From: Octopus vulgaris
Lineage: Eukaryota
Direction of reading: 5' to 3'
NCBI GenBank assembly: GCA_951406725.2
Contig: OX597815.1
Location: 58,900,001 to 58,964,000, forward strand
DNA length: 64,000 bases
In this document: positions 2,981-56,381 of the stretch, piece by piece
Numbering within the stretch: the stretch's first letter is position 1
Layout: the number at the start of each line of letters is the position of its first letter
Program-made: the position numbers and the translations under genes
The notes under the pieces: model-generated
Databases searched by the model: none
What the model was told of the DNA's origin: nothing
Seen by the model: the letters and a program-made list of their open reading frames with translations, nothing else

Positions 2981-3669
2981 CTATAAAGGCTGGGAGTTAC
3001 ATAAAGTTCTTAATGTCATATCTTTATAATTAAACTGTGGAGTTTCCAGTGGAGTAAGTACTTCATCAACATAAGTTTGATACTCATTGGCAGTTGTTTT
3101 CTTGGATTTAATATCAAGCTTTTTCTCCAGGTTTTCAATTTTAAGACGTAACAGTTCATTTTCTTCTTGGTAACTTTCCAGACTTTTTTGTAAGGATTGG
3201 TAATTTTCCACTTCTTTTAATAGTAATAAAATATGCTTGCGGAGATCCTCATTTTGAATTTGCAGTTCTTCAATAACTTGCTTGTCATCTTTTGGCATTT
3301 TGGTCATAACAGGTTGTGCTGGAGCATGAATGCGAGAATTTATACAATCAGATAAAGTATCTAAGTTTTTAGCTGCATGAGACTGGTTTCGACTTACGAG
3401 ATACTGAATTAAAGAATCATTTTCTTCAATAGTACGATAAATAGTGACAATACGGGGTTCAAAATCAGCTTTTGGACTATTTGGTGTACTCTGAGGTAAT
3501 CCTGAAGTAGCTGAATGAGAAGGATCTGATTTCTTTAAATCTTCTTGCTGGGCATTCTTTTCTTTCCGTCGAATTATTTCTTGTTGTCGATTATGGTGAC
3601 AATGCTGTAGTTGGAGTGAATCTTTTGCTTGTTCCGAATTTACTTCAGACATAGCCTCTAATACACACT
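2981..3669 (-). CDS. NRBF2: Terminal coding exon of nuclear receptor-binding factor 2 (Atg38 homologue, PI3KC3-C1 autophagy subunit)
   Basis: ECVLEAMSEVNSEQAKDSLQLQHCHHNRQQEII resembles the end of the NRBF2 MIT domain (human AYLSEAMKLTQSEQAHLSLELQ, from memory). KMPKDDKQVIEEL...DLRKHI resembles its coiled coil, and LTPLETPQF the C-terminal motif. Acceptor TTATTTTGCAG ends at 3670 (phase 1); TAG stop at 2981-2983. Confidence 0.85.
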
Positions 3670-4282
3670 CTGCAAAATAAGCCATAAGGATAAATTCATA
3701 AGTAAAAAACATTGATATGATTGACAGAAAGGTAAATAAATATATATGGACATGGATGTAGTTAGGACTTTAATCTTACTGAATTGCATAAATTATTTTC
3801 TATCATAAATTGCAATACAATAAAGCACTCTGAGGTAGTTTTAAACAAAACTGTGTAAGAGATATTTAATTAATATATATTTAGTGTAATAACAACATCA
3901 CCATCAGTCTTCTCGTCTTCCTCTTACTCTCCCCCTTCTCCTCTTATTCTAGGTTTCTCACTTACTACCATGATAACCCACTCCACTCTCTCTCACACAA
4001 CGCTGAACTTAACATTAAATTTTTAACATCTTAGATAAACACTTTACCCTGTCCCACCACCTTATGCAATACCAATTCTTCACTTTAAGAAACCTACAAT
4101 CTAAAAAGAATTAGCAATTGAACATCTTAGTAACACCACATTATACAAAAAAGTGTACATCACACCTAGTCAGCTTGGGATTACTATTAACACTAACTGG
4201 ACCAACATTTTTCACAACAGAAAGTTCTCTAAGAAGACTAAACTTAATTTCGCAACAAAAAATATTTCCCTCCCCTCTTTTT

Positions 4283-5039: not shown

Positions 5040-5683
5040 CTTTACTCTATCCCTAATTAGTTGGGCTATGGACCTCTCCATGACCTTCATTACCTGCAGC
5101 TGTCTTACCAGAAATATAGCATCAATGGTGCAAACCCAAACTGCATCTCATCTAAACTGACTCTCTCCCTAATTAGTTAAGCTATGACTCTCTCCGTGAC
5201 CTTCATTACCTGATCCAACAACTTGACACCTTTGTAATTATAATACACACTCTGCAAAATAAGCCTTAAGTGTCACCTTTACCTGTGTAGCAGTTGACTA
5301 TTATGCTGCTACACCAGTCATTGGGTATGACTCCTTCATATATCACCTGGTTAACTATATGGGTAACTAGGCTATAGCCGACACTGCCAGATATTTTGAG
5401 CATCTCTGCAGTAATTCCTGATGGGCCGGGGGCTTTTCCTGTCTTCATACTCTTAATTGCCTTATCTACCAAGGTACTGTCAACTCGGATAGCTGGTCCC
5501 TCTGTTGGGTCGACATTCAGCAGACTCTCTATCTCCCATTCATTTTCTTTATTGAGCAACCTTTCATAGTGGCATCTCCAAACCTCTCTCTTTGCAGCCT
5601 CGTTTAGTGCAAGTGAACCATCATCCATGCAGACACATTTCTCTCCTATAACATCACGATTCTCTCTCACACACTGTCTTGAA
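5040..5683 (-). mobile_element. RTE LINE internal fragment (N-terminal RT region)
   Basis: ORF 5266-5670 (KAIKSMKTGKAPGPSGITAEMLK...IPNDWCSSIIV) belongs to the same family as 58174-58770. Confidence 0.85.
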
Positions 5684-5685
5684 AC

Positions 5686-7190
5686 ACCTCAAAATGTTTA
5701 CAATTGGAATGTGTTATTGTTCCAGTTCAATACTCTGATTGGGCAGCTCTCATTGTACCAGTGATGAAGCAGGATGGCTCAGTGCGCATTTGCAGAGATT
5801 ATAAACTTACAGTCAACCGGTCAACTGTTTTAGACAAGCACTTGTTACTTAAAATGGAAGAAATGTATGCAACTCTGCCTGGAGGCCAAAAGTTCACAAA
5901 AATCGATCTCAGTCATGCATATTCCCAGATGCTTATTCTTGTGCTTGCACTACAATTGCTACCCATATTGCGTTGTTTCAATTTACTAGATTACCATTTG
6001 GAATTAATACAGCCCCAGGAATTTTTCAATGCATTATCAACAACATTGTTAAAGATGTACCATGGGCTTGTGCATACCTAGATGATTTACTAATCACCGA
6101 GCATTCTGATGATGAACATCTTCATTACATTATCTATCATACTTGCTCATCTTCACAAAAGCGGATTAAAACTGAAGAACAAATGTGAGTTTTTTTTTTT
6201 ATTCTGTTTGTTATCTTGGTTACCAACTTAATAAAGATGGTTTGCAAATTAGGAGTGATTAAAGTGCAGTCTATTTTAAATGCACCAGAACTTAAAAACA
6301 ATAGTGAGTTAAGATCATATGTAAGAATGTTATCACATTATTGTCGTTTTTTACTAAATATTTCAACTGTGTTGATATCCTTATATTCCTCATTGCGTAG
6401 AGATTCCTTTGGGGGTGGAATGTTACTTACTAGTTCATCTGTACTTGTGCATTATGATCTGCATGAAACATTTAATGCTAGGTGTGGCCCTTTGTCATCG
6501 AATGAACGGCAGTACTGTTTGTCCTGTAGCTTTTGCCTCATGTACTCTGTTACCAGCTGAAAAGAACTATTCTCAGTTGGACAAAGAAGCACTTGCAATT
6601 TTATTTTGTGTCAAGTAATTCCATTAATATATTTCGTCGTTTTGAAATTTATACTGATCATAAACCTTTGATTGCACTACTTGGAGAAGAGTGGAGTATT
6701 CAGCAAGTGTGCTAACCAAGAATGCAGAGATGGGCTTTGATGTTAAATGCTTATAGTTATAGTATGTATTACGTTCCTGGGACTAAGAATGTTACTGCTG
6801 ATGTATTGAGTCGTTTACGCTTGACTTCTTTGTTACACAAAATTGAACAACCAGCAGAAGTGGTACACATGATGCAACATTTTAGCAGCACACCTATCTG
6901 AGAATAGGATATACTTTGACTAACAGACAAGAATCAAATACTGTCCAGTATCAAACATTATCTTTTAAGAGGGTGGCCATCCAAAACAAGTGTAGAATTA
7001 AAACCATTTTTACAGCGTAAAGATGAACTGAGTCTGCACAAGGGTTGTATATTTTGGGGTCTTCGTATAATTGTACCCCTTAAATTAAAACAATAATTGC
7101 TTAATGAACTGCATGATACTCATCCAGGCATAAATCAAATGAAAGCATTATCTTGAAGCTACTGTTGGTGGCCCAATTTGGATGCTGAGA
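5686..7190 (+). mobile_element. Degenerate Ty3/Gypsy pol fragment (RT, RNase H, start of integrase)
   Basis: Motifs SDWAALIVPVMKQDGSVRICRDYK, RLPFG, YLDD, PVAFAS...EKNYSQLDKEALAI, YTDHKPL and LHDTHPG...WWPNLD. Many stops and frameshifts. Confidence 0.9.
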
Positions 7191-23544: not shown

Positions 23545-26500
23545 CCAAAGCGGAGGTACGCAGATGTTGTGCACGCCACAAACAGCCAACATGATGTTGT
23601 CGAAAGAGCAGCTGCTGAGCAACAATCTTTTTTGTGCATGGCACAAAAGATTGTACAGCAGCTGACCTGGCTTCATCAAACCCAAGCCCGCAGGTGGGAC
23701 TACCCACTATATACCAGACCACCACAGCAAACAGACACAGGATGGACACCGCCGGCGACAACAACGTACACCTCACCTCGATACTCCTACTGAACATCAG
23801 AGGACTGCAAACACTCAGTAACAGGACAAAGATCCCGTTCCTGAGAGACTTTGTTGCATGCAATCAAGCCTTATGCATAGCACTTACAGAAACGCACCTG
23901 AAACCGGACATAGCAGATGCGGAGTTACACATACCACAGTATGCTGTACTACGGACCGACAGGAAAGAAAGGAGTCATGGAGGTGTTGCTATGTACATCC
24001 GTGAGGACCTCACACCCCAGGTCCTCTTGTCATACTCAAACTCGGTGTGTGACACACTAATTGTACATATTAGGCAACTTGATGTAGTTGTGTGTGCTAC
24101 ATATCGCCCTCCAGATGCCCCAAGCCATGTGGGCAAGTTCGAAGACTGCCTTATAAAAATAGAAGAAATTCTAACCACATTAGAACAACACATAGGTGTG
24201 CTTCTTATGGGAGACTTCAATCTGCCCAATGTCAGATGGCCCGAGGGCCTTTCTCTCCCAGGAATGACAAGATGTGAACGAGGACAGGCGAGGTCCCTCC
24301 TGAACCTCATCAACACCCTGTACATGGAGCAGGTAATACTCCAACCAACCAGGGCAGGTAACACACTGGATCTCTGCTTCACAAATGACATGGATCTCAT
24401 CCATAATGTGAAAGTGACACCGACACTACTCTCGGATCACAACATGATAGAGCTGACCATGTATGGGCCAAAAGAGAGCACGGACATGCAGCCTACAAGA
24501 AACCCTCAAAATCTTTCCAGCTTGAACTACCATAAGGCAAACTGGAAACAAATTGAGAAAGAGATCCTCAAACAAAACTGGCCTGAATGTCTCTCCTTGC
24601 CAGACATCGACGTGAAACTTCAACAATTCATGTCTGTAATGCAAGCCATATGCTACAAATGTGTCCCAGAGAGAAAGGCCACTGTACACAAGAACAAAAT
24701 CCCCAGAGAGAGGAAAATTTTAATGAGACGGCGTACGAAATTTTCAAATCGCCTAAACAAACAGATTGAAAGCAGTGAAAAGTCCCACCTAAAAATAAAA
24801 CTGTTGGAAATCGAAAAATGTCTGCAACTCTCCCATGAAAAGGAAAGAGCAGACAAAGAAGCCTGGGCTATAGAAAACATAAAATCTAACCCCAGAGCTT
24901 TCTACAGGTATGCCATAGAAACAGCTACAGTGCACTGTAGAATAGGGCCACTCCTAGAAAAGGATGGCACACTTACAGGAAAACCAATGAGGGTAAGTGA
25001 AATACTGAATGAGCAATTCAAGAGTGTTTTCACTCCACCCCTTGGGCATCTCCAAATCACCAATCCAACTGACATTTTTACCACTGCAGATATAAAATCA
25101 GAGGCGGCGACGATAGATTACATCGATATAAAGGAAGACGATGTAACCAAGGCTATAGATGAAATGAAAACAGACTCAGCTACTGGCCCCGATGGATTCC
25201 CGGCAATCCTCCTAAAAGCATGTAAGAGAGTCCTAGCAAGACCACTGCAGTTCCTCTTTCAGAGCTTCCTTGCAGCTGGCAAACTTCCAGGAAAACTGAA
25301 GGAAGGTAAAATATGCCCCATTCATAAAGGAGGTAGCAGAGCGGAAGCCAAGAACTATAGACCTATCTCTCTGACCTCACACATCAGCAAGGTCATGGAA
25401 CGAATAGTCAGAAGGAAGCTGATCACCTTCCTTGAAGAGAATGACTTGCTGCCCGACACCCAACATGGTTTCCGACCAGGGAGAAGCTGTTTAACTCAGA
25501 TCCTACAACACTATGACTGGGTGCTGAAACGGCTGCTCAACCACTCAAATGTGGAAGTGATATATCTCGACTTTGCAAAGGCCTTTGATAAAGTCGATCA
25601 TGGAATGATATGTCACAAACTGCGTGATCTCAACATAGTTGGAAAACTGGGAGAATGGCTTCATGACTTTCTGAAGGATAGAAGTCAGGTGGTAGTAGCC
25701 AATGGGGCCACCTCCATTAACACACAAATAGTGAGCGGTGTTCCGCAGGGCACTGTTCTGGGACCACTACTGTTCATAATGGCCCTCTCAGACATGCCCT
25801 CAGCCACGCAGAGAGCCACGATCACAAGTTATGCAGATGATACAAAAGTTTCACAGGCAATACAGAACCCTGAGGACACTAAACACCTGCAATGTGAGCT
25901 GGACGAAATATACAAGTGGGCTGAAAAGAATAGCATGCAGTTCAATGCTGGAAAGTTTCAAGCTTTATACTATCAGCATGCAAAACTGAATGCAATACCC
26001 AATGAATACACTGGACCCGGAGGGATTGCAATCCCAGAGGCACAATCAGTGCGTGACCTGGGTATTCACATGAGTGATGACGCGACCTTTCATGTACATG
26101 TTGCTAAACTGACAATGAAATGTAGACGGCTGGCTGGCTGGATTCTTAGAACCTTTAGAACAAGAGAACAAGAAACCATGATGGTCCTCTGGAAGACACT
26201 TGTCCTAAGCCACTTTGACTATTGCTCTCAGCTATGGTCACCATCCAGTGTCAAGTTGATCACAGAACTTGAGGCGATCCAACGAAGCTACACAAAGAAG
26301 ATAGCCTCTATGCAGAATGTAAGCTACTGGGAAAGACTCAAGAGATTAAAATTATATTCCCTGGAGCGTAGGCGGGAAAGATATGCCATAATATACATCT
26401 GGAAGATCCTGGAGGGAAGTGTCCTGAACTTTGGCATCGAGAGTTACGCAAATGCCAGAACTGGGCGCCACTGCGTGGTGCCTAGGACTCCAAACCTGCC

Positions 26501-26831
26501 ATCAAGATGTAGGACAAGATTCTGTGATAGCCTGGGCTTCCGAGGCCCACAGCTCTTCAATATCCTCCCGAAGAACCTGAGAGACCTGCATGGGGTGGAT
26601 ACAGATGTCTTTAAAATGAAGCTGGATCTCTTCCTGTCAGGTGTCCCAGATGAACCAACTTCACGGCAGGAGGGGCAGATGAGGGCAGCTGCATCGAACT
26701 CTCTCATGCACCAAATAGCAGTTGCTAGAAAGCCTCCATGAAGTGAAACCAGGTAGCAACACCAAATGGCGGTGCCCCAGCATGGCCACAGCTCATAGGC
26801 TGAAACTAGAATCAATCAATCAATCAATCAA
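23545..26831 (+). mobile_element. CR1-group LINE (family A), 5'-truncated in ORF1, ORF2 intact, (ATCA)n tail
   Basis: ORF1 tail ending at 23793, APE-RT ORF2, short 3' UTR and AATCAATCAATC tail. (TA)n on both sides. Confidence 0.93.
23742..26741 (+). CDS. LINE ORF2: apurinic-like endonuclease plus reverse transcriptase
   Basis: EN motifs LLNIRGL, LTETHL, GGVAMY, YRPP, MGDFN, LDL and SDH. RT motifs [39 protein letters not shown] and YADD. First ATG at 23742; the frame is open from 23619. Confidence 0.95.
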
Positions 26832-30569: not shown

Positions 30570-30580
30570 TATATAAATGA

Positions 30581-33500
30581 AGCCCGCAGGTGGGACTACC
30601 CACTATATACCAGACCACCACAGCAAACAGACACAGGATGGACACCGCCGGCAACAACGTACACCTCACCTCGATACTCCTACTGAACATCAGAGGACTG
30701 CAAACACTCAGTAACAGGACAAAGATCCCGTTCCTGAGAGACTTTGTTGCATGCAATCAAGCCTTATGCATAGCACTTACAGAAACGCACCTGAAACCGG
30801 ACATAGCAGATGCGGAGTTACACATACCACAGTATGCTGTACTACGGACCGACCGGAAAGAAAGGAGTCATGGAGGTGTTGCTATGTACATCCGTAAGGA
30901 CCTCACACCCCAGGTCCTCTTGTCATAGTCAAACTCGGTTTGTGACACACTAATTGTACATATTAGGCAACTTGATGTAGTTGTGTGTGCTACATATCGC
31001 CCTCCAGATGCCCCAAGTCATGTGGGCAAGTTCGAAGACTGCCTTATAAAAATAGAAGAAATTCTAACCACATTAGAACAACACATAGGTGTGCTTCTTA
31101 TGGGAGACTTCAATCTGCCCAATGTCAGATGGCCCGAGGGCCTTTCTCTCCCAGGAATGACAAGATGTGAACGAGGACAGGCAAAGTCCCTCCTGAACCT
31201 CATCAACACCCTGTACATGGAGCAGGTAATACTCCAACCAACCAGGGCAGGTAACACACTGGATCTCTGCTTCACAAACGACATGGATCTCATCCATAAT
31301 GTGAAAGTGACACCGACACTACTCTCGGATCACAACATGATAGAGCTGACCATGTACGGGCCAAAAGAGAGCACAGACATGCAGCCTACAAGAAACCCTC
31401 AAAATCTTTCCAGCTTGAACTACCATAAGGCAAACTGGAAACAAATTGAGAAAGAGATCCTCAAACAAAACTGGCCTAAATGTCTCTCCTCGCCAGACAT
31501 CGACGTGAAACTTCAACAATTCATGTCTGTAATGCAAGCCATATGCTACAAATGTGTCCCAGAGAGAAAGGCCACTGTACACAAGAACAAAATCCCCAGA
31601 GAGAGGAAAATTTTAATGAGACGGCGTACGAAATTTTCAAATGCCTAAACAAACAGATTGAAAGCAGTGAAAAGTCTCGCCTAAAAATAAAACTTGGAAA
31701 TCGAAAAATGTCTGCAACTCTCCCATGAAAAAGAAAGAGCAGACAAAGAAGCCTGGGCTATAGAAAACATAAAATCTAACCCCGGAGCTTTCTACAGGTA
31801 TGCCAAAGAAACAGCTACGGTGCACTGTAGAATAGGGCCACTCCTCGAAAAGGATGGCACACTTACAGGAAAACCAATGAGGGTAAGTGAAATACTGAAT
31901 GAGCAATTCAAGAGTGTTTTCACTCCACCCCTTGGGCATCTCCAAATCACCAATCCAACTGACTTTTTTACCACTGCAGATATAAAATCAGAGGCGGCGA
32001 CGATAGATTACATCGATATAAAGGAAGACGATGTAACCAAGGCTATAGATTAAATGAAAACAGACTCAGCTACTGGCCCCGATGGATTCCCGGCAATCCT
32101 CCTAAAAGCATGTAAGAGAGTCCTAGCAAGACCACTGCAGTTCCTCTTTCAGAGCTTCCTTGCAGCTGGCAAACTTCCAGGAAAACTGAAGGAAGGTAAA
32201 ATATGCCCCATTCATAAAGGAGGTAGCAGAGCAGAAGCCAAGAACTATAGACCTATCTCTCTGACCTCACACATCAGCAAGGTCATGGAACGAATAGTCA
32301 GAAGGAAGCTGATCACCTTCCTTGAAGAGAATGACTTGCTGCCCGACACCCAACATGGTTTCCGACCAGGGAGAAGCTGTTTAACTCAGCTCCTACAACA
32401 CTATGACTGGGTGCTGAAACGGCTGCTCAACCACTCAAATGTGGAAGTGATATATCTCGACTTTGCAAAGGCCTTTGATAAAGTCGATCATGGAATGATA
32501 TGTCACAAACTGCGTGATCTCAACATAGTTGGAAAACTGGGAGAATGGCTTCATGACTTTCTGAAGGATAGAAGTCAGGTGGTAGTAGCCAATGGGGCCA
32601 CCTCCATTAACACACAAATAGTGAGCGGTGTTCCGCAGGGCACTGTTCTGGGACCACTACTGTTCATAATGGCCCTCTCAGACATGCCCTCAGCCACGCA
32701 GAGAGCCACGATCACAAGTTATGCAGATGATACAAAAGTTTCACAGGCAATACAGAACCCTGAGGACACTAAACACCTGCAATGTGAGCTGGACGAAATA
32801 TACAAGTGGGCTGAAAAGAATAGCATGCAGTTCAATGCTGGAAAGTTTCAAGCTTTATACTATCAGCATGCAAAACTGAATGCAATACCCAATGAATACA
32901 CTGGACCCGGAGGGATTGCAATCCCAGAGGCACAATCAGTGCGTGACCTGGGTATTCACATGAGTGATGACGCGACCTTTCATGTACATGTTGCTAAACT
33001 GACAATGAAATGTAGACGGCTGGCTGGATGGATTCTTAGAACCTTTAGAACAAGAGAACAAGAAACCATGATGGTCCTCTGGAAGACACTTGTCCTAAGC
33101 CACTTTGACTATTGCTCTCAGCTATGGTCACCATCCAGTGTCAAGTTGATCACAGAACTTGAGGCGATCCAACGAAGCTACACAAAGAAGATAGCCTCTA
33201 TGCAGAATGTAAGCTACTGGGAAAGACTCAAGAGATTAAAATTATATTCCCTGGAGCGTAGGCGGGAAAGATATGCCATAATATACATCTGGAAGATCCT
33301 GGAGGGAAGTGTCCTGAACTTTGGCATCGAGAGTTACGCAAATGCCAGAACTGGGCGCACTGCGTGGTGCCTAGGACTCCAAACCTGCCATCAAGATGTA
33401 GGACAAAATACTGTGATAGCCTGGGCTTCCGAGGCCCACAGCTCTTCAATATCCTCCCGAAGAACCTGAGAGACCTGCATGGGGTGGATACAGATGTCTT

Positions 33501-33714
33501 TAAAATGAAGCTGGATCTCTTCCTGTCAGGTGTCCCAGATGAACCAACTTCACGGCAGGAGGGGCAGATGAGGGCAGCTGCATCGAACTCTCTCATGCAC
33601 CAAATAGCAGCTGCTAGAAAGCCTCCATGAAGTGAAACCAAGTAGCAACACAAAATGGCGGTGCCCCAGCATGGCCACAGCTCATAAGCTGAAACTAGAA
33701 TCAATCAATCAATC
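30581..33714 (+). mobile_element. Second CR1-group family A LINE, disabled
   Basis: Nearly identical to 23685-26831, but with TAG at 30926, frameshifts near 31643, 31693 and 33357, and TAA at 32051. (ATCA)n tail. Confidence 0.93.
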
Positions 33715-33747
33715 ATATATATATATATATATATAATATATATATAA

Positions 33748-33800
<53 letters not shown>

Positions 33801-34057
33801 TATATATATATATATATATAATATATATATAAATAAATATATATATATAAATAAATATATATATATATAAATATATATATATAAATATATATATAAATAA
33901 ATATATATATACATAAATATATATATATATAAATATATATATAAATAAATATATATATATATAAATATATATATAAATAAATATATATATATATATAAAT
34001 ATATATATAAATATATATATAAATATATATATAAATATATATACAAATATATATATA

Positions 34058-34121
<64 letters not shown>

Positions 34122-34186
34122 TATATATAAATATATATATATAAATATATATATATAATATATATATATAATATATATATATATAA

Positions 34187-34250
<64 letters not shown>

Positions 34251-34418
34251 TATATATAAAATATATATATAAATATATATATAAATATATATATAAATAT
34301 ATATATAATATATATATATAAATATATATATAAATATATATATAATATATATATATAAATATATATATAAATATATATATAAATATATATATATAAATAT
34401 ATATATAAATATATATAT

Positions 34419-34527
<109 letters not shown>

Positions 34528-34548
34528 TATATATAAATATATATATAT

Positions 34549-34597
<49 letters not shown>

Positions 34598-34839
34598 TAT
34601 ATATAAATATATATATAAATATATATATAAATATATATATAAATATATATATAAATGTATATATATAAATGTATATATATAAATATATATATAAATATAT
34701 ATATAAATATATATATAAATATATATATATAAATATATATATAAATATATATATAATTAATACATATATATAAATACATATATATAAATATATATATATA
34801 AATATATATATATAAATATATATATAAATATATATATAA

Positions 34840-35671: not shown

Positions 35672-36490
35672 TTGGAAACAACTTGCACATGCAAGTGCTA
35701 CCAGTCAAAAGCTCTGTATACCGGAAGCCACCAAGTGTATGGGGTCATCAGGAAAGAATGCGCACCGTTTCGGGGCCTACCTCTCGACAGCATCAGTGTG
35801 CACCGGCCCTCCTCCCTGATATGAGGCCCTGCTTGCTAGATCAGCTGGTTATCAAGTTAAGCTCAATATCCTTCTAGCCATCGCTCATCATCTCTTTTTA
35901 ACCAAATCCAGTGACTAGCCTTCTCCACTGTAGATTGGATATCGGTCATGGTGGTATTGACTTTATGATGAGTTAGGCCTAGCGATAACAACAGTTGTCT
36001 CACACTGTGTCCAATGAACCCTCTACATCCGACTTCGATTGGAAAATGTTCCGCTTTCCAGCCTGTGCCTTCACATTACTCGAGGAGGTTTACATAACGG
36101 TTCAATTTTCGAGCCCGAGCGGTGTCCATATTATCTTCATTAGGAACCGTTAACTCGACTATATTTACAACTTTCTTTCTTTCATACCACATCAAAATAT
36201 CTGGTTTTTTCGAAATTGGGATGGGAAAGAAAACCTGACACCCAGGTAAATCTGCAGTTACCTCGCAATAACCGTTCCACTTGTCATTTCTCTCAGGAAG
36301 TTTCTTGATCTTCTTCTTGAAATGGATCCGCTGACCTGGTCGCACGAAGGTAACAAAATCTCTAGATGGTACTTCTAACGGTTTTTTCTCAGTGTTGTTG
36401 AGATGAATTTGGTTCTTTATAGCATTGAAGAGAACCTTAAGGACCAAGTTGTGCCTCCATGTATACCTGTTCAATGCTAATAATTTTTGT
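35670..36490 (-). mobile_element. 3' fragment of an RLE-type non-LTR retrotransposon (HERO/NeSL-like)
   Basis: RYTWRHNLVL, KPDI...IVELTVP.E, RKLNRY, then past one stop PIEVGCRGFIG and EKASHWIWLKRDD. These are restriction-like endonuclease motifs. Embedded in (TA)n. Confidence 0.88.
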
Positions 36491-36569
36491 ATATTATATA
36501 TTATATATATATTATTTATATATATATATGTTGTATATATATTGTTCATATATATATATATATATATAC

Positions 36570-37710
36570 ACTGAAGAATTCAGGGTAGAGGTAGGGGTCC
36601 ACTAAGGTTCAGTCCCCAGCCCCCTCCTATTTATCATAGTCCTCTAGGCAATAACGGAGGAATTGAAGACAGTATGCCCTTGGAAGCTCCTCTATGCTGA
36701 TGACCTTGCTCTAATTGCTGAGTCACTATCAGAACTAGAGGAGAAGTTTCAAGTGTGGAAACAAGGATTAGAATCGAAGGGCCTTAGAGTCAACCTAACT
36801 AGAACCAAAATCCTAATAAGTAGGAAGGCAGGCAAACCACAAATCCCTTCAGGTAGATGGCCCTGCTCTATCTGTCATAGAGGCATAGGTAGAAACTCTA
36901 TAAGATGTTCCCAGTGTAAGCTATGGACACATAAGAGGTGCGGTAATATCGAAGGGTGGCTAACAGGGAAGATAGTTTTTGTTTGTGGCAGATGCTCTGG
37001 AGCAATAAACACTGAAAATGCACAGAGAACAACATTCCAGGGAGGAAAACTAGAAGTAGTTGATAGCTTCCATTACCTAGGTGACCAAGTCAGAAGCAGG
37101 GGAGGATGCGCTGAAAGTGTAGCTGCTCGAATTAGAATAGCTTGGGCAAAGTTCAGAGAGCTCTTACCTCTGCTGGTTACAAAGAGCTTCTCGTTCAGAG
37201 TAAAAGGTAGACTGTTTGACGCATGTGTACAAACAGCCATGCTACATGGCAGGGAAACATGGGCCGTGACTGCTGAGGACATGCATAAGCTTGCAAGGAA
37301 TGAAGCCAGTATGCTCCGATGAATGTGTAATGTCAGTGTGCATACTCTGCAGAGTGTAAGTACCTTGAGAGAAAAGTTGGACCTAAGAAGCATCAGATGT
37401 GGAGTACAAGAGAGACGACTATGCTGGTATGGTCATGTGGCGAGAATGGATGAAGACAGCTGTGTGAAAAAGTGCCACACCCTAGCGGTTGAGGGAACCT
37501 GTGGAAGAGGTAGACCCAGGAAGACCAGGATGAAGTGGTGAAGCACGACCTTCGAACTTTGGGCCTCACCGAAGAAATGACTAGTGTCCGAGACTTTTGG
37601 AAATATGCTGTGCGTGAGAAAACCCAGCAAGCCAAATGTGACCATAATCTCGTGGCCTATGTCAGGGCGTTACCAGCCCGCTTATGCGTACCTTTTCCTT
37701 CTTTGGACAC
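36570..37710 (+). mobile_element. 5'-truncated RTE LINE fragment
   Basis: LLYADDLALIAES, Cys-rich finger and GRGRPRKT; same family as 59040-60150. Confidence 0.9.
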
Positions 37711-46658: not shown

Positions 46659-46717
46659 TTTTATACTTGTGTATGGGTGTATGTATGTATATATATGTAT
46701 ATATATATATATATATA

Positions 46718-47890
46718 TATGTTAATAAAATATATGCATATATATAAACATATATGTACGTACCTACCTCTACATGTACATATACACGCATATATGTGTA
46801 CAGGACACCAAAAAGACGTCGAACACATAGAGAGACGAAAAACATAGACACAAACCAAGGAACAAGACAGGCAAAAAAAGGAGATACAGGACAATAAGCA
46901 CAACGAAAAATCCCCTTCTTCAGTCGCTAAAGTTTCATCTACTAAACGTTTCGAAGGATAAAAGCGAGACGTATACTTCGAATGAAAAATTCCTTCCTGC
47001 GAAAAGCAAATCAATTAAAATTCTGAGATCTTGTCGCAGAGGGGTAAAAAAAGCAAGACGGTAACGACAGTACAAACATATAAACAGTAAAAAATATATA
47101 TATAAACAGTGGAAAAATAAATATATAACAGTGAGAGACAGGACAAGGAGAACAAGATAAGAAGGGCTGTTAACGCCAGACGAAAAAAAGTATTGCAAAC
47201 GCTGGATTATAGTGGACGACGAGAGAGGAAGATGTCGACCAGTGGCCTTAGAAGGCGGGCGAGAAAGGACGGGATAGCAGTTACGACGGAAGTACGTCGC
47301 AGATGGACGACGGGAATGGGGGAGGAGGAGCAAGAGGAAGAGAGAGAAGAAGGGGAATGGTGCGAGGAGACCATGAAGAACAGTGAGGGGGAGAGAGAGA
47401 GGAAGAGACAAGTTAAGTGAGGGAAAAAAGACGAAAAAGGGAATGGGAGAGAAAGAAAGAAAGATGCAGAGTCGCGTGAGAGTTAATATCAAGGCGAACT
47501 TGATAAACAGAACAATCTTACTTAATAGGGTGCGTGCGTTTAGTCGTATAATATGTTAATAAAATATATGCATATATATAAACATATATGTACGTACCTA
47601 CCTCTACATGTACATATACACGCATATATGTGTACAGGACACCAAAAAGACGTCGAACACATAGAGAGACGAAAAACATAGACACAAACCAAGGAACAAG
47701 ACAGGCAAAAAAAGGAGATACAGGACAATAAGCACAACGAAAAATCCCCTTCTTCAGTCGCTAAAGTTTCATCTACTAAACGTTTCGAAGGATAAAAGCG
47801 AGACGTATACTTCGAATGAAAAATTCCTTCCTGCGAAAAGCAAATCAATTAAAATTCTGAGATCTTGTCGCAGAGGGGTAAAAAAAGCAA
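46718..47890. repeat. Element with two essentially identical ~340-bp direct repeats around a ~500-bp purine-rich core
   Basis: 46718-47056 matches 47551-47890 (TGTTAATAAAATATATGC...GGGGTAAAAAAAGCAA); lies within (TA/TG)n. Confidence 0.88.
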
Positions 47891-48476: not shown

Positions 48477-49454
48477 GTGTGCATGTAGTGTGTATATATA
48501 TATATATATATGTGTGCATGTAGTGTATAAGTGGATGAGGAGGAAATGAGTGAGAGAACATGTGTGTGTGTGTGAGTGTGTGCGTGTGTGCGTTTAAGGG
48601 AAGGGAGAGGGGAGTAGAAGAAGGAATCCCTTTGGCCTGCTGGAACCCCAGGGGAGTTCTAGGAAATAGCGTCACTGAATGTGTGTCGGTGGGCGGGCAG
48701 GTCATAAATTATACCTTTTATGATTTTGAGGATGGGCAGATGCCATTTTTGGGTCTAAGAACTTCATCTACTTTGTATGATTGTACTGTGGAGGTGTGTG
48801 TGTGAGTCTGTGTGTGTGTTTTTGTGTGTGTGTGTGTGTGTGTGTGTCTGTGTGTATAGAGTAGGGGAGAGACAAATAGAGAAAAGGGAAAATAAAAATA
48901 AAATAAGGGAGGAAGATGAGGAGGAAAAAATGTGTGTGTGTATATGTGGGTATATATGTGTATATATATATATATATATGTGCGTGTGTTTGCGTGTTTG
49001 CATGTATGTGTATGTGTATTTGTATATATGTGTATATATATGTATGTATATATATATGTATGTATATATATATGTATATATATATATATGTGCTTGTGTA
49101 TTTATATGTATGTGTGTGTGTGTCTGTATGTATATACATGGGCATATGTATATGTAAATATATGGATATTCACATGTGTATGTATGTGGGTTTGTATGTA
49201 TATTTATTCTTTATGTTTTTTCATGTATATTTATCTACTTTCTCCCTCCACTTAACAACAACAAACTGACTAAAAGCAATTGTCTTCTAATTTACCTAAA
49301 ACTCTATTTATTCATTTATTTAATTTATCACTGATTCTTTTGACCACTCCCCTAAGAACGATAGTTTGTGCCCTGCTTACCCAAAAAACGTCCCCCACCA
49401 CCACCCCATTAAATCTGCCTAAATGTATAAATACCAGACCTTATTTTGACAGCC

Positions 49455-49505
49455 AGCTTCCTGAAGATTTCATTTGAATGAAACAGTTCTAGTCCTGTAG
49501 AAGCT
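49455..49505 (+). ncRNA. Type I hammerhead ribozyme motif
   Basis: AGCTTC-CTGAAGA-T TTC ATTT GAA T-GAA-ACAG TTCTAGTC CTGT-A-GAAGCT: stem I 6 bp, stem III 4 bp, GUA cleavage triplet, weak stem II. Confidence 0.7.
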
Positions 49506-50256
49506 CCTTCCATAAAATAATATATATATTATATAATAATAATATTAGGGAGTATAACTCTAAACCTACAGGGAAAAAATCAAATGTAGTATTGAATCCA
49601 ATTTCACAATATAAATGTATATGTAACTTAGAGAAAAAACCACTATTATGCAATTCAAACAATGATAGACATAAACCAAATCATAAAATTTGTATAATAC
49701 ATATAACTAGATCACAAAAATTATAAAAATGAATAATCAATATATAGTATGTAAAAAAAGGAATAAGAATAACTTAAATGCAATCTATATAGGGTCTACT
49801 TCTTGTAAAATTAAAGTAAGAGTAGCTCAGCTTATGTATTCCTTTAAAAATAGAAATCTTATGAACTCTACTGGGCCCAGTAAATATATTTAGGAACATA
49901 AATCTCAACAAATTAAGTATAATTTAAAGTGGGAGATAGTTTGCAAGGGGAAATCATATAGTATAAGTTGTAATTCCTGTTTATTATGTTCTAGTGTATT
50001 TAAAGAAATAATATTTAATAATCATAATAAATTAGTTAATTTATTGGATGAGTGTAAAATTAAATGTAGACACAAATTACTTATATAATAGAGTGGTTGT
50101 ATAAAGTCAACATAACGTGACAGTCCCATAGAGGGAATTACACCACCGCTATATAGCCCTAGGAAGCACCGACGCTTCCTGTCAGCTTTAACACATTTCC
50201 TCTGTCCTTATATTTGCAAAGGGGAGGCAAGCACCCCCACCAGCTAGGACCAGCAA

Positions 50257-50296
50257 CCTGAAGACATGCATGTTTCTGGGTATTTCCCATCATCAG
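50257..50296 (-). ncRNA. Hammerhead core, antisense copy lacking the 5' strand of stem I
   Basis: The minus strand reads CTGATGA-TGGG AAATA CCCA-GAAAC ATGCAT GTC-TTCAGG. Confidence 0.6.
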
Positions 50297-50318
50297 GCCG
50301 CTTGCGGGGACATGCTAC

Positions 50319-50364
50319 CCTGGACTGATGACGGGCAATACCCAGAAACATGCATGTCTTCAGG
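50319..50364 (+). ncRNA. Minimal type I hammerhead ribozyme with palindromic stem III
   Basis: CCTGGA-CTGATGA-C GGG CAATA CCC A-GAAAC ATGCAT GTC-TTCAGG. Confidence 0.75.
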
Positions 50365-51537
50365 TTGCTGGTCCTAGCTGGTGGGAATGCTTGCCTCCCC
50401 TTTGCAAATATAAGGACACAGGAAATGTGTCCAAGCCGGCAGGAAGCGTTGAGGCTTCCTAGGGCTATATAGCGGTGGTGTAATTCCCTCTACGGGACCG
50501 TCACGTTATGTTGGCATTATGCAACCACTCTATCGCTCCACCACCGCTCATGTCTCTTTGAGACATTTAGAAATTCAATGTTTCTAATTACTTATATAAT
50601 AAATTTTTAGATAAATAGTGAATATATTTAAACCTTATTTTTGTTTCTAATTTGTAGTTATAATTTGTACTAGTATTAATTCTATGATTTAGCATGTGAT
50701 TATATATTGTATATCACATAATTGAATATTTATTATTAAATTAATAAATAAATTAAGTAATTAATTAAAATACATTTTTCTATCTATTTACTCTATTTTT
50801 TTACCTTGAATATTTAACATAATAAATGTATTGTAGGCAACTGATCCTAATGTTTTAAGTTTCATATTTAGTTAATGGAGTTTCTTCTATAAGAAAAATC
50901 ATCATTTTATTTTTTATAATAGATATTAACTCTATTTGCTTATTTATTTAACTATTACTGTTAACCTGAAGAGTGACTATAATTTTAAATTGAATTGATT
51001 TTCGATTAAATTTAAATTTAATTGTAATTCAAATTTGATTATGTCATGAAATGTACATAGTTTTTTTTACTTATATATTGATTATTCATATTTATACTTT
51101 TTGTGGTCTAGTTATGTTTTATAAAAATATATTTTATTTTTATTTATGATTTGGTTTATGTCTATCATTGTTTGAATTGCATAATAGTGTTTTTTTTCTC
51201 TGATTTATGTTATATATATATATATCACATATATATATATTATTTAATTTATAATATATATATATATTATCATGTATATATATATGTATCCATGTATATA
51301 TATATGTATACATATATATATATACATATATATATATGTATACATATATATATATGTATACATATATATATATATATATATTATCATGTATATATATTAC
51401 GGAGATGTACTCGCATAGCAAGTAATTTGATCTGAGATCGTGTGCTGAAACGAAAACAATTGCAGCGTGGAAGGTGTTTATAAGCCATTTAAGAAACACA
51501 CAAAAGCCGTTCGATTCACTCCAACATTTAAGTTTAA

Positions 51538-51587
51538 TTTGTCAAAATATTTTCGTCGCTAAAATCCGCGACCTGTTCACTGACAAA
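51538..51587 (-). ncRNA. Hammerhead-like fold with G3-C8 variant core
   Basis: The minus strand reads TTTGTCA-GTGAACA-G-GTCGC GGATTTTA GCGAC-GAAA ATAT TT-TGACAAA: stem I 7 bp, stem II 5 bp. Confidence 0.55.
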
Positions 51588-51672
51588 GTCCGTGCTGCAT
51601 CATGTATATATATGTATACATGTATACATATATGTATACATATATATATATGTATACATACATATATATATA

Positions 51673-51714
<42 letters not shown>

Positions 51715-51724
51715 ATATATATTT

Positions 51725-52135
51725 CTTTTTTCTTATTTTTTTTACTTGTTTCAGTCATTTTGACTGCGGCCATGCTGGAGCACCACCTTTAATTGAGCAA
51801 CTCGACCCCGGGACTTATTCTTTGTAAGCCCAGTACTTATTCTATCGGTCTCTTTTGCCGAACCGCTAAGTGATGGGGACATAAACACACCAGCATCGGT
51901 TGTCAAGCAACGCTAGGGGGACAAACACAGACACACAAACATATACGCACATACATATATATACATATATATGACAGGCTTCTTTCAGTTTCCATCTACC
52001 AAATCCACTCACAAGGCTTTGGTCGGCCTGAGGCTATAGTAGAAGACACTTGCCCAAGGTACCACACAGTGGGACTGAACCCGGAAACACGTGGTTGGTA
52101 AACAAGCTACTTACCACACAGCCACTCCTGCATCT
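51725..52135 (-). mobile_element. Full-length tRNA-derived SINE with CR1-type tail
   Basis: Same family as 34996-35400. The 20-mer at its 5' junction, GCCACTCCTGCATCTATATG, is triplicated at 52121-52180. Confidence 0.9.
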
Positions 52136-52331
52136 ATATGGCCACTCCTGCGTCTATATGGCCACTCCTGCATCTATATATATATATATATATATATAGA
52201 TATCATATATATATGTTATATAATTTATACTATATATATATATATCATAGAGATAAGAAAATAATATTTTGAATGCAGTATTGCTGTGAAAATAGCAGAA
52301 AGATTGAGTATTTTACTTTATGTGACTGGAA

Positions 52332-53025
52332 AAGTTGTCAGCAGAATGCCATGGGACTCAAACCTGCACCCTTCAAGGATTGGTTGAATACTCTGCCATT
52401 CAGCTAAACTGCTGACAACAAATTCCATCAAATTAAACACTCAATACATAGCTTCTTTGAAATGCACCAACATGTTTTATATCCTGATGTTGGATAAATA
52501 ATTTAAGAAAGCAGATGGAAAGAAAGTATTCACACAAAACACTAGTATTACTGTTACATGATGTTAAATGCTCTCTGCCAAAAACTAGCAGTATTCACAC
52601 TACATATCATTACTGTTACACAAGGTTAAATGCTCTCTGCCAACAGCTCACTGTGAACTGCTTAACAATCAATTGCTCACTGTTCTTTATTTTATAGCAG
52701 TGTGTTAGTCTACTTTTAGACACTTGAGGTGGTCAGAATACTTCCACAACAATATGAAAACAAATTTTTTTGTATTGTATCATACAGACAAGAAAATAAT
52801 ATTCTGAATGCAGTATAGCCATAAAAATAGAGATAAGGTTTGACACTTCCAAAAACAAAGTAAGTTTGTTTACATATGTTGTTGCATTTCAAATAAGCTA
52901 TGTATTTAGTGTTTAATTTGATGGAATTTGTTGTCAGTGGGCAATAGTAGAATACTTAATAGTAGAGTACTCAGCCAGTATCTGAGAGGTGCAGGTTTAA
53001 CCCCTTGGCTGTCTGCTGACAACTT
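52332..53025. repeat. Inverted repeat whose arms contain outward-facing tRNA-like sequences
   Basis: 52332-52474 is the imperfect reverse complement of 52876-53025. The left arm on the minus strand has A-box TAGCTGAATGG and B-box GGTTTGAGTCCC. Confidence 0.7.
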
Positions 53026-53272: not shown

Positions 53273-54385
53273 ATGGAGGGGGTGCAGAAATATAGGGGAG
53301 CACCAGTGGGAGGGGTGGTTCAGAGGACAGGTACTAGGCAAGTAGAACGTAGGATATCGAGAGAGGGGTAATGCATGGTGAAATAGCGTATTGAAGAGGG
53401 GGTTCAAAGAGTAGACACCTATAATGGTGGTGGGGGGTGCAGAAATATAGGGGAGCACCAGTGGGAGGGGTGGTTCAGAGGACAGGTTCTAGGCAAGTAG
53501 AACGTAGGATATCGAGAGAGGGGTAATGAATGGTGAAATAGCGTATTGAAGAGGGGGGTTCAAAGAGTAGACACCTATAATGGTGGTGGGGGGGGTGCAG
53601 AAATATAGGGGAGCACCAGTGGGAGGGGTGAGCACCAGTGGGAGGGGTGGTTCAGAGGACAGGTTCTAGGCAAGTAGAACGTAGGATATCGAGAGAGGGG
53701 TAATGCATGGTGAATAGCGTATTGAAGAGGGGGGTTCAAAGAGTAGACACCTATAATGGTGGGGGGGTGCAGAAATATAGGGGAGCACCAGTGGGAGGGG
53801 TGGTTCAGAGGACAGGTTCTAGGCAAGTAGAACGTAGGATATCGAGAGAGGGGTAATGCATGGTGAAATAGCGTATTGAAGAGGGGGTTCAAAGAGTAGA
53901 CACCTATAATGGTGGGGGGTGGTGCAGAAATATAGGGGAGCACCAGTGGGAGGGGTGGTTCAGAGGACAGGTTCTAGGCAAGTAGAACGTAGGATATCGA
54001 GAGAGGGGTAATGCATGGTGAAATAGCGTATTGAAGAGGGGGTTCAAAGAGTAGACACCTATAATGGTGGTGGGGGGTGCAGAAATATAGGGGAGCACCA
54101 GTGGGAGGGGTGGTTCAGAGGACAGGTTCTAGGCAAGTAGAACGTAGGATATCGAGAGAGGGGTAATGCATGGTGAAATAGCATATTGAAGAGGGGGTTC
54201 AAAGAGTAGACACCTATAATGGTGGTGGGGGGTGCAGAAATATAGGGGAGCACCAGTGGGAGGGGTGGTTCAGAGGACAGGTTCTAGGCAAGTAGAACGT
54301 AGGATATCGAGAGAGGGGTAATGCATGGTGAAATAGCGTATTGAAGAGGGGGGTTCAAAGAGTAGACACCTATAATGGTGGTGGG
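53273..54385. repeat. ~155-bp G-rich minisatellite, 7 units
   Basis: GCAGAAATATAGGGGAGCACC recurs at about 53284, 53439, 53597, 53769, 53924, 54079 and 54233. Confidence 0.95.
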
Positions 54386-54462
54386 AGAAACGACATCTGG
54401 TATAGTTGGAGCAAAATAGAGATATCCGGTATTGGTGGTGGGGGTGGGTAGGGTGGGCGCGC

Positions 54463-56329
54463 CGCGAAGAATCGGCAGCCAATTTCTAATCAGCCCTGTA
54501 AGGGAGATAGATCTTAAATATCTATAATGATAACTAGTGAATTATACAGAATATGCAAAAACGAGGCGAGGCTGAAATAGTAAACAGAGTGGCGACTAGG
54601 GGGATCAGAATAATAATAATTAATAAATAATAATAATAAATAGAGATACGGATGAATTAAAGTTCAAAGATTTCTTATCTTGGGATCACTTCGTTTACGG
54701 ACAGACTTGGCAAAAGGAATTCGGAATCAAGAATGAGGCAGGTTACTAGCTTAAGTATGCATAGCCATGGCGAGGGGTAGGAAGAGAGGAGTCCAGACAG
54801 ACGACAATGTAAAAAGAAGGGGAGAGAAGGGAAGAGAAAAACCCCGCGAAGAATCGGCAGCCAATTTCTAATCAGCCCTGTAAGGGAGATAGATCTTAAA
54901 TATCTATAACGATAACTAGTGAATTATACAGAATATGCAAAAACGAGGCGAGGCTGAAATAGTAAACAGAGTGGCGACTAGGGGGATCAGAATAATAATA
55001 ATTAATAAATAATAATAATAAATAGAGATACGGATGAATTAAAGTTCAAAGATTTCTTATCTTGGGATCACTTCGTTTACGGACAGACTTGGCAAAAGGA
55101 ATTCGGAATCAAGAATGAGGCAGGTTACTAGCTTAAGTATGCATAGCCATGGCGAGGGGCAGGAAGAGAGGAGTCCAGACAGACGACAATGTAAAAAGAG
55201 GGGAGAGAAGGGAAGAGAAAAACCCCGCGAAGAATCGGCAGCCAATTTCTAATCAGCCCTGTAAGGGAGATAGATCTTAAATATCTATAACGATAACTAG
55301 TGAATTATACAGAATATGCAAAAACGAGGCGAGGCTGAAATAGTAAACAGAGTGGCGACTAGGGGGATCAGAATAATAATAATTAATAAATAATAATAAT
55401 AAATAGAGATACGGATGAATTAAAGTTCAAAGATTTCTTATCTTGGGATCACTTCGTTTACGGACAGACTTGGCAAAAGGAATTCGGAATCAAGAATGAG
55501 GCAGGTTACTAGCTTAAGTATGCATAGCCATGGCGAGGGGTAGGAAGAGAGGAGTCCAGACAGACGACAATGTAAAAAGAGGGGGAGAGAAGGGAAGAGA
55601 AAAACCCCGCGAAGAATCGGCAGCCAATTTCTAATCAGCCCCGTAAGGGAGATAGATCTTAAATATCTATAACGATAACTAGTGAATTATACAGAATATG
55701 CAAAAACGAGGCGAGGCTGAAATAGTAAACAGAGTGGCGACTAGGGGGATCAGAATAATAATAATTAATAAATAATAATAATAAATAGAGATACGGATGA
55801 ATTAAAGTTCAAAGATTTCTTATCTTGGGATCACTTCGTTTACGGACAGACTTGGCAAAAGGAATTCGGAATCAAGAATGAGGCAGGTTACTAGCTTAAG
55901 TATGCATAGCCATGGCGAGGGGCAGGAAGAGAGGAGTCCAGACAGACGACAATGTAAAAAGAGGGGGAGAGAAGGGAAGAGAAAAACCCCGCGAAGAATC
56001 GGCAGCCAATTTCTAATCAGCCCTGTAAGGGAGATAGATCTTAAATATCTATAACGATAACTAGTGAATTATACAGAATATGCAAAAACGAGGCGAGGCT
56101 GAAATAGTAAACAGAGTGGCGACTAGGGGGATCAGAATAATAATAATTAATAAATAATAATAATAAATAGAGATACGGATGAATTAAAGTTCAAAGATTT
56201 CTTATCTTGGGATCACTTCGTTTACGGACAGACTTGGCAAAAGGAATTCGGAATCAAGAATGAGGCAGGTTACTAGCTTAAGTATGCATAGCCATGGCGA
56301 GGGGTAGGAAGAGAGGAGTCCAGACAGAC

Positions 56330-56332
<3 letters not shown>
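54463..56332. repeat. 382-bp tandem repeat, ~4.9 near-identical units
   Basis: CGCGAAGAATCGGCAGCC at 54463, 54845, 55226, 55608 and 55990. Confidence 0.97.

Positions 56333-56381
<49 letters not shown>

Follow-up and report, generated by a model that had tools for sequence, protein, structure and literature searches.

Reverse transcription of Penelope-like elements (PLEs) begins close to the element RNA's 3' end, immediately downstream of a hammerhead, and usually stops early. Most of their genomic copies are truncated at the 5' end; they retain the pLTR hammerhead and frequently carry an inverted copy and a tail; the ribozymes are weak, depend on dimers or on protein, and are dispensable for insertion in vitro (PMC4209133, PMC8557442, PMC11167929). 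Targeting of (TA)n has been described for PLEs (Craig 2021, PMC8557442), opposite-strand pairs of minimal hammerheads (min-HHRs) 100–700 bp apart have been reported (Cervera 2014, PMC4209133), and a review describes a tendency of PLEs to land in, or next to, other PLEs. In Anolis, the enzyme's nick falls in AT-rich DNA immediately past the ORF-pLTR junction (Frangieh 2024, PMC11167929). Additional literature on these systems is found in PMC3088659, PMC6765202 and PMC6962438.

The systems closest to the locus studied here are the Hydra-clade PLEs (Craig 2021, PMC8557442), which include Hydra-1_Obim of Octopus bimaculoides. Like them, the locus contains a GIY-YIG endonuclease at the C-terminus, with CxxC and CxH motifs, a hammerhead located past the ORF stop and before the 3' end, a (TA)n target and an inverted 5'-truncated copy. 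Different from the Hydra-clade PLEs, the hammerhead of the outer element (HH4) has a far longer loop II, and just the last 108 codons of the ORF survive, in broken form. The locus has the CUGAAGAG...UGAAA core context and the U-run in stem I in common with Hydra-1_Obim; compared by eye, its endonuclease is of another family. That layout has already been published by Craig 2021 (PMC8557442), together with U·U closure in hammerheads and a Hydra family of Octopus; Penelope-13_HM there has an inverted copy and hammerheads on both strands. PAc (Poseidon, Anolis; Frangieh 2024, PMC11167929) is of a different clade, but it too has a pLTR hammerhead, an AT-rich target close to where ORF and pLTR meet, and a tail, which there comes from two RT start sites. 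Animal non-LTR retrozymes (PMC7229834; bioRxiv 10.64898/2026.07.22.740005) are also non-coding, with a type I hammerhead and a long target duplication; unlike them, the present locus has inverted arms with a tail, no tandem units and one coding piece.

We read these 2.2 kb as a nest of four independent, decayed PLE 3' ends in AT/(TA)n-rich DNA, and give this reading a probability of about 0.87. The ribozyme cluster is real but ordinary. Its features, with the hammerhead motifs named HH1 to HH5, are listed below; the window is the whole 64-kb stretch of DNA that was analysed.

2981–3676 (end approximate), minus strand: last coding exon of NRBF2, 72% to an Argonauta hians NRBF2-like protein
49455–49505, plus strand: HH1 (descriptor, folding, sequence comparison)
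49609–49759, minus strand: left arm of the outer element, an inverted 5'-truncated copy of its own 3' end, 79% to 51062–51225
49762–50088, plus strand: dead C-terminal GIY-YIG endonuclease of a Hydra-clade PLE (phmmer, profile, conserved columns)
50075–50090, plus strand: left copy of the 16-bp target-site duplication, covering the stop codon of the outer ORF
50091–50299, minus strand: inverted 5'-truncated arm of the inner element, carrying HH2 (arm alignment)
50257–50296, minus strand: HH2, incomplete (descriptor, arm comparison)
50300–50533, plus strand: direct arm of the inner element, resembling a pLTR end and including 22 unique nt on its upstream side (arm alignment)
50319–50364, plus strand: HH3 (descriptor, folding, sequence comparison)
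50534–50585, plus strand: one-sided tail of the inner element, 52 nt (arm alignment, flank comparison)
50586–50601, plus strand: right copy of the 16-bp target-site duplication (exact repeat)
50602–50962, plus strand: AT-rich stretch from the ORF stop to HH4, the putative 3' region by comparison with published Hydra layouts
50963–51062, plus strand: HH4 (descriptor, folding, sequence comparison)
51062–51225, plus strand: 3' terminal arm of the outer element, running into (TA)n (arm alignment, repeat scan)
51398–51598, minus strand: 201-bp insertion within (TA)n, carrying HH5 (repeat and flank scans)
51538–51587, minus strand: HH5 (descriptor)

The original prediction had claimed four to five hammerhead folds, belonging to several non-coding elements that had piled up here in and around a nested fold-back, with no RT ORF nearby. 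The coordinates agree with ours, and four of the folds are complete, possessing a type I core and three stems (HH1, HH3, HH4 with a weak stem I, and HH5 as a G3·C8 variant); the fifth, HH2, lacks stem I. The nested fold-back stands as well, since the outer arms (79% identity) enclose the inner pair. Beyond these two arm pairs, the pieces have just short AT-rich matches in common, in accord with the statement that the motifs are otherwise unrelated in sequence. The piling up of unrelated mobile elements and their link to PLEs were also right, but "non-coding" was not, as the outer element carries a PLE endonuclease relic at 49762–50088.

Judged from its sequence, the outer fold-back represents what is left of a Hydra-clade PLE after truncation, the endonuclease end included. 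The endonuclease frame contains one internal stop and terminates with the stop codon at 50086–50088. With the frame read through as X, phmmer gave 557 matches at E ≤ 1e-3, the best of them at 3.7e-14; among the 150 matches listed, 146 contain the CxxC..E motif, 138 contain CxH and 8 are at least 300 aa long. One profile, built from 35 of these 150 listed matches, recognised the relic with an E of 1.7e-24 as its sole match in the window. Five full-length or long relatives used as queries matched 49777–50076 alone within the 64-kb window; therefore, the RT part is absent here, as the original prediction had it. The RWK and DKT motifs and the CxCX5C linker are missing from the truncated copy and present in the homologs P0061, P0166, P0169 and P0174. 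P0061 (722 aa) possesses RWK-type, DKT, YxDD, CxCX-C, CxxC and CxH motifs, which are marks of the Hydra clade (Craig 2021, PMC8557442), and its match to the relic lies at its C-terminus; P0166, P0169 and P0174, which are cluster relatives of other matches, have the same motif set and the same C-terminal match. Among the matches, P0038 (35% identical), compared by eye, agrees with Hydra-2_Amil at 25 of the 26 residues shown in Fig. S7 (Craig 2021).

Among the 25 well-conserved endonuclease columns, 20 are kept in the relic. CxxC, N and CxH are intact; the five changed residues are a conserved H, L, W, L and E, of which the W is now a stop and the E, located between the intact motifs, has decayed to V. 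With H and E altered and the W turned into a stop, the gene is dead. The Pfam scan did not recognise the relic, and a word-index protein search with it found nothing; among 12 of its phmmer matches that were scanned, Pfam GIY-YIG recognised one. We had also considered the outer repeats as those of a DNA transposon; this reading was dropped because of the endonuclease relic.

The order of the outer element, namely ORF stop, 3' region, HH4, ∼146 nt and (TA)n, is that of the published Hydra consensus (Craig 2021). With the inner insertion discounted, the stop is 367 nt from the HH4 core, and the HH4 cut site is ∼146 nt from the element end, which places HH4 between the ORF stop and the 3' end; in six novel families, the hammerhead motif records start 104–183 nt from the 3' end (Craig 2021, PMC8557442). 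HH4 is of the form CUGAAGA-G...U-GAAA, with an AUA site, H17 at 51059 and a palindromic stem III. Its stem I is weak, being just 3 bp in length, and its stem II together with a long AT-rich loop II spans ∼75 nt. The Hydra rows of File S2 show C-G at 15.2–16.2, unlike HH4 (U-A) and HH5 (A-U). On the right side, the element runs into a TA array (51211–51397), and a short TA run is present on the left side, consistent with insertion into (TA)n; no clear target duplication was found for the outer element, for which the TA runs are the candidates. The inverted arm, which corresponds to the last ∼150 nt, sits directly 5' of the ORF relic, and its homology is clear as far as about 49625. Between this arm and the TA run there are ∼90 nt of unique sequence (49530–49620), possibly a left-sided tail of the outer element.

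The inner insertion is 495 bp in length (50091–50585) and lies between exact 16-bp repeats. For comparison, the longest repeat was 6–10 nt in 3000 flank pairs taken from the same AT-rich body in overlapping, not independent, windows. Because its target duplication covers the stop codon of the outer ORF, the inner element was inserted later. The inner arms (50088–50299 and 50322–50533) are 212 nt in length and 92% identical, with 18 differences; less the 3 nt common to the target duplication, they are 209 nt, which bears out the 209-bp inverted repeat described before. The inner element contains an inverted 5'-truncated copy and a one-sided tail, both described for PLEs (Craig 2021, PMC8557442); the tail, which is regarded as a PLE signature (Craig 2021, PMC8557442; Frangieh 2024, PMC11167929), is 52 nt here, compared to the quoted 30–40 bp. 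Such a layout suggests a PLE identity for the inner element. The arms terminate in a motif that weakly resembles, by eye, the 3' end of Hydra-2_Amil.

HH3, in the direct arm, has a CUGAUGA core, a GUC site, H17 at 50358, a 6-bp stem I and a palindromic stem III. The base of its stem II is C·A, perhaps through decay, where the twin arm has U-A; one Chara element also has C...A at this position (Craig 2021 File S2, PMC8557442). Just upstream of HH3, 7 nt (50309–50315, plus strand) are complementary to stem III and the cleavage triplet (50352–50358), and could act as a built-in inhibitor. HH2, in the inverted arm, has a perfect core, stem II and a palindromic stem III; no stem I is formed at its GUC site, with a C opposite the U beside the scissile bond. 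This stem may have been cut off or altered at the inversion junction. The descriptor match of HH2 falls in another register, which is probably spurious.

The two remaining pieces flank the nest. HH1 is of type I, CUGAAGA-U followed by a 4-bp stem II and U-GAAA, with a 4-bp stem III, a GUA site and H17 at 49499; 17 nt past it there is an AT/TA run. HH1 probably marks the 3' end of another, truncated PLE, which would stop at that run. We rejected decay as the cause of the U·U at its stem II base, because no form is more frequent in Hydra than U...U, which 14 of the 26 Hydra-clade rows of File S2 show when counted by eye (Craig 2021, PMC8557442). One 34-nt match (82%, E 7e-5 with the filter off) links 49300–49333, 120 nt upstream of HH1, to 50928–50960, directly upstream of HH4, on the plus strand; it reflects either chance in AT-rich DNA or a relationship between the HH1 and HH4 elements.

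The 201-bp piece is bounded by 15-bp direct repeats (51383–51397 and 51599–51613), with HH5 located 11 nt from its 5' end, and is probably a 5'-truncated PLE end; the 15-bp repeat is weaker as evidence of target duplication because it lies in microsatellite-like DNA. HH5 is a minimal hammerhead with a 7-bp stem I, a GUGAACA core (G3·C8 swap), a UUU site and H17 at 51545. It has an extra nt before a G-C-closed, 5-bp stem II, and its helix III is minimal and palindromic; an extra nt, G-C closure and a minimal palindromic helix III are all reported for PLE min-HHRs (Cervera and de la Peña 2014, PMC4209133). Different from the minimal hammerheads of PLE pLTRs, HH5 has G3·C8, whereas the natural 3-8 covariation reported is U3-A8 (Cervera 2014, PMC4209133; Perreault 2011). 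An engineered C3G/G8C double mutant kept partial activity (Frangieh 2024, PMC11167929). Searching the literature by title and abstract start, we found no natural G3·C8 family; the variant list of Lünse 2017 and the supplements of Cervera 2014 and of bioRxiv 10.64898/2026.07.22.740005 may include one.

Taken together, these observations are consistent with three steps. A Hydra-clade PLE would have entered (TA)n; left behind from it would be an inverted arm, the terminal third of a kilobase of the ORF, the 3' region, HH4 and the terminal arm. A second PLE-type copy would then have entered at the stop codon of that ORF, duplicating 16 bp and leaving the divergent arms with HH2 and HH3 as well as a tail. 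Two further short ends, with HH1 and HH5, would have been added in the flanking TA runs. The ribozymes served their parent elements, where they probably processed multimers of the element RNA with weak activity, either in dimeric form or helped by protein; at this locus they would be relics, presumably inactive at present, and the fold-backs would be by-products of the insertions.

Several points speak against the PLE reading: the window has no second copy of any of the four pieces, the inner tail exceeds the quoted length, Pfam and the word-index search missed the relic, HH1 is not clearly dead, HH4 and HH5 depart from the Hydra rows at 15.2–16.2, and the inner, HH1 and HH5 pieces show no coding trace. 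The last point favours an alternative in which only the outer element is a Hydra PLE relic, the other three being non-autonomous retrozyme- or SINE-like elements, or the inner one being a fold-back DNA element with a chance hammerhead. Retrozyme monomers are common, have been argued to derive from PLE pLTRs and can have long target duplications. However, no tandem units each with a hammerhead were found in 48800–52300, where just microsatellites and a 20-nt repeat occur, and the inner element is asymmetric in a PLE-like manner, with a one-sided tail and a truncation at the ribozyme, rather than having equal terminal inverted repeats. We consider this alternative improbable.

Host function of the cluster is unlikely, judging from the predicted folds. 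HH1, HH3 and HH4 are antisense to NRBF2, whereas HH2 and HH5 are on the NRBF2 strand. The last coding exon of NRBF2 is the one host exon found in the window, which is TA-microsatellite-rich animal DNA; the similarity of this exon to Argonauta suggests an octopod host. A search of the window with the first 55 residues of the Argonauta protein gave no upstream exon, so we infer the intronic position of the cluster, which probably lies inside a long NRBF2 intron. Folding costs were computed with the hammerhead fold forced at 37°C, as secondary-structure energies only. The cost is 2.1 kcal/mol for HH1 in context, 6.7 for HH5 and 11.7 for HH4. HH3 costs 4.4 kcal/mol alone and 57.8 within its element, where it is part of a 212-bp hairpin, because the complementary arm precedes it and is transcribed first.

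It had been proposed that the minus-strand motifs could cut the nascent NRBF2 intron and that the plus-strand ones could excise an RNA of ∼860 nt. In this alternative, the cluster would be host-exapted or accidentally active, with HH1 and HH3 releasing an RNA that may be circularised. The intact core and low folding cost of HH1, the low cost of HH3 alone and the partial activity of the C3G/G8C double mutant (PMC11167929) favour it. However, HH2 has no stem I, HH5 has a UUU site in addition to its swapped core, the 860-nt RNA would draw its ends from two different, independent insertions, HH3 would have to pay ∼58 kcal/mol (in secondary-structure energies only) to refold, PLE min-HHR monomers are nearly inactive (Cervera 2014, PMC4209133), and the position in an intron is inferred. 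Both proposals are thus unsupported; neither intron cutting nor excision is likely on these folding estimates, and the alternative as a whole is very improbable. HH1, with its low folding cost and naturally occurring U·U closure, is not clearly dead, and could cut if an antisense transcript were made.

The relaxed descriptor, which permits an extra nt after A9, one stem II mismatch, 3-8 core swaps and a long loop II, gave 5 matches in the 64-kb window, every one inside 49400–51620. The initial, stricter descriptor had missed four motifs because it allowed neither an extra nt nor a mismatch where stem II begins. Block-wise dinucleotide shuffling of 49400–51620, repeated 500 times, gave a mean of 0.036 and a maximum of 1, so the shuffle check suggested earlier came out in favour of the motifs, with five matches never reached; stricter versions of the descriptor gave 1, 2 and 3 matches, and each count was likewise equalled by 0/500 shuffles. 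Fifteen shuffles of the whole window with the relaxed descriptor gave a mean of 0.80 (range 0–4). These figures flatter the result, because the descriptor was loosened once the motifs were already known. The suggested check with Rfam hammerhead models went the other way, no family matching 48500–52500 at E ≤ 10; the Rfam scan of the whole window gave 0 matches at the gathering score. Rfam microRNA matches in the region were artefacts of hairpins or TA repeats. An origin of the motifs by chance, in DNA that is AT-rich and palindromic, is largely refuted and hardly credible: although Rfam is silent, the descriptor was tuned afterwards, shuffled 64-kb windows yield up to 4 matches and stem I of HH4 is just 3 bp, none of the 500 regional shuffles reached the observed count with any of the four descriptors, and HH4 follows a Hydra endonuclease on its downstream side, which is the place of the hammerhead in Hydra elements.

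Two leads, each a single case, go beyond the PLE reading, and we regard them as doubtful. Homology of the outer inverted arm sets in at 51062, 2 nt downstream of where HH4 would be cut (51059/51060), and the arm may represent cDNA extended to the 5' end of a self-cleaved element RNA before a template switch; or the G3·C8 of HH5 may be fixed in an octopod repeat family. A/T-run microhomology at the outer junction (49751–49759) explains the breakpoint equally well, and the inner inversion breaks about 35–60 nt upstream of its own cleavage site; the breakpoint lead is therefore one ambiguous case. If it were true, the arm would record, in the genome, cleavage by a PLE hammerhead in vivo, for which Frangieh 2024 (PMC11167929) saw no RNA ends at the hammerhead site in public RNA-seq; across the genome, Hydra copies would then have their inversion breakpoints concentrated at the cleavage site. 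Seen across many copies, such a lead would matter more, as it bears on whether PLE hammerheads cut during transposition in vivo. As it stands, the locus matters little: octopods gain a further Hydra-clade PLE family, and nested PLE debris, not a regulatory device, can lie behind dense groups of hammerheads and fold-backs in animal introns.

In addition, we searched for other copies and relatives. The window contains no additional copies of the four pieces. The metagenome-contig scan with one full-length relative gave 117 candidate stretches, of which 0 were confirmed, and DNA-pattern scans gave 0 matches in viral contigs and 0 in genome contigs. Two pattern matches in metagenome contigs were judged chance, because those contigs are 61% GC and have only the 22-nt pattern in common. 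Part of 49400–51620 was present in 20 of the 24 sequencing runs listed, half of its words in none; no RNA run among those listed contained the region. Literature searches on octopus with hammerhead, ribozyme or PLE inversions gave no description of this locus.

The window also contains other repeats. At 23619–26741 (plus strand) there is a 1040-aa open frame, with a 96%-identical broken copy at 30580–34731; judging from its motifs, it resembles an APE-RT LINE, presumably of a young family. The fragment at 36076–36579 (minus strand) has no Pfam match and presumably resembles the restriction-like endonuclease of a non-LTR element, whereas 5683–6560 (plus strand) would, in our estimation, be a Gypsy RT/RNase H. 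Abutting the TA run after the HH5 piece, 51731–52140 (plus strand) is a short interspersed repeat with several copies in the window, which we assume to be an octopus SINE. Tandem arrays are located at 54462–56333 and 53278–54385, with units of ∼382 bp (over 99% identical) and 155–177 bp, respectively. Finally, 46712–47056 and 47547–47890 form a 345-bp direct duplication of 99.7% identity, which is either a recent duplication or an assembly artefact.
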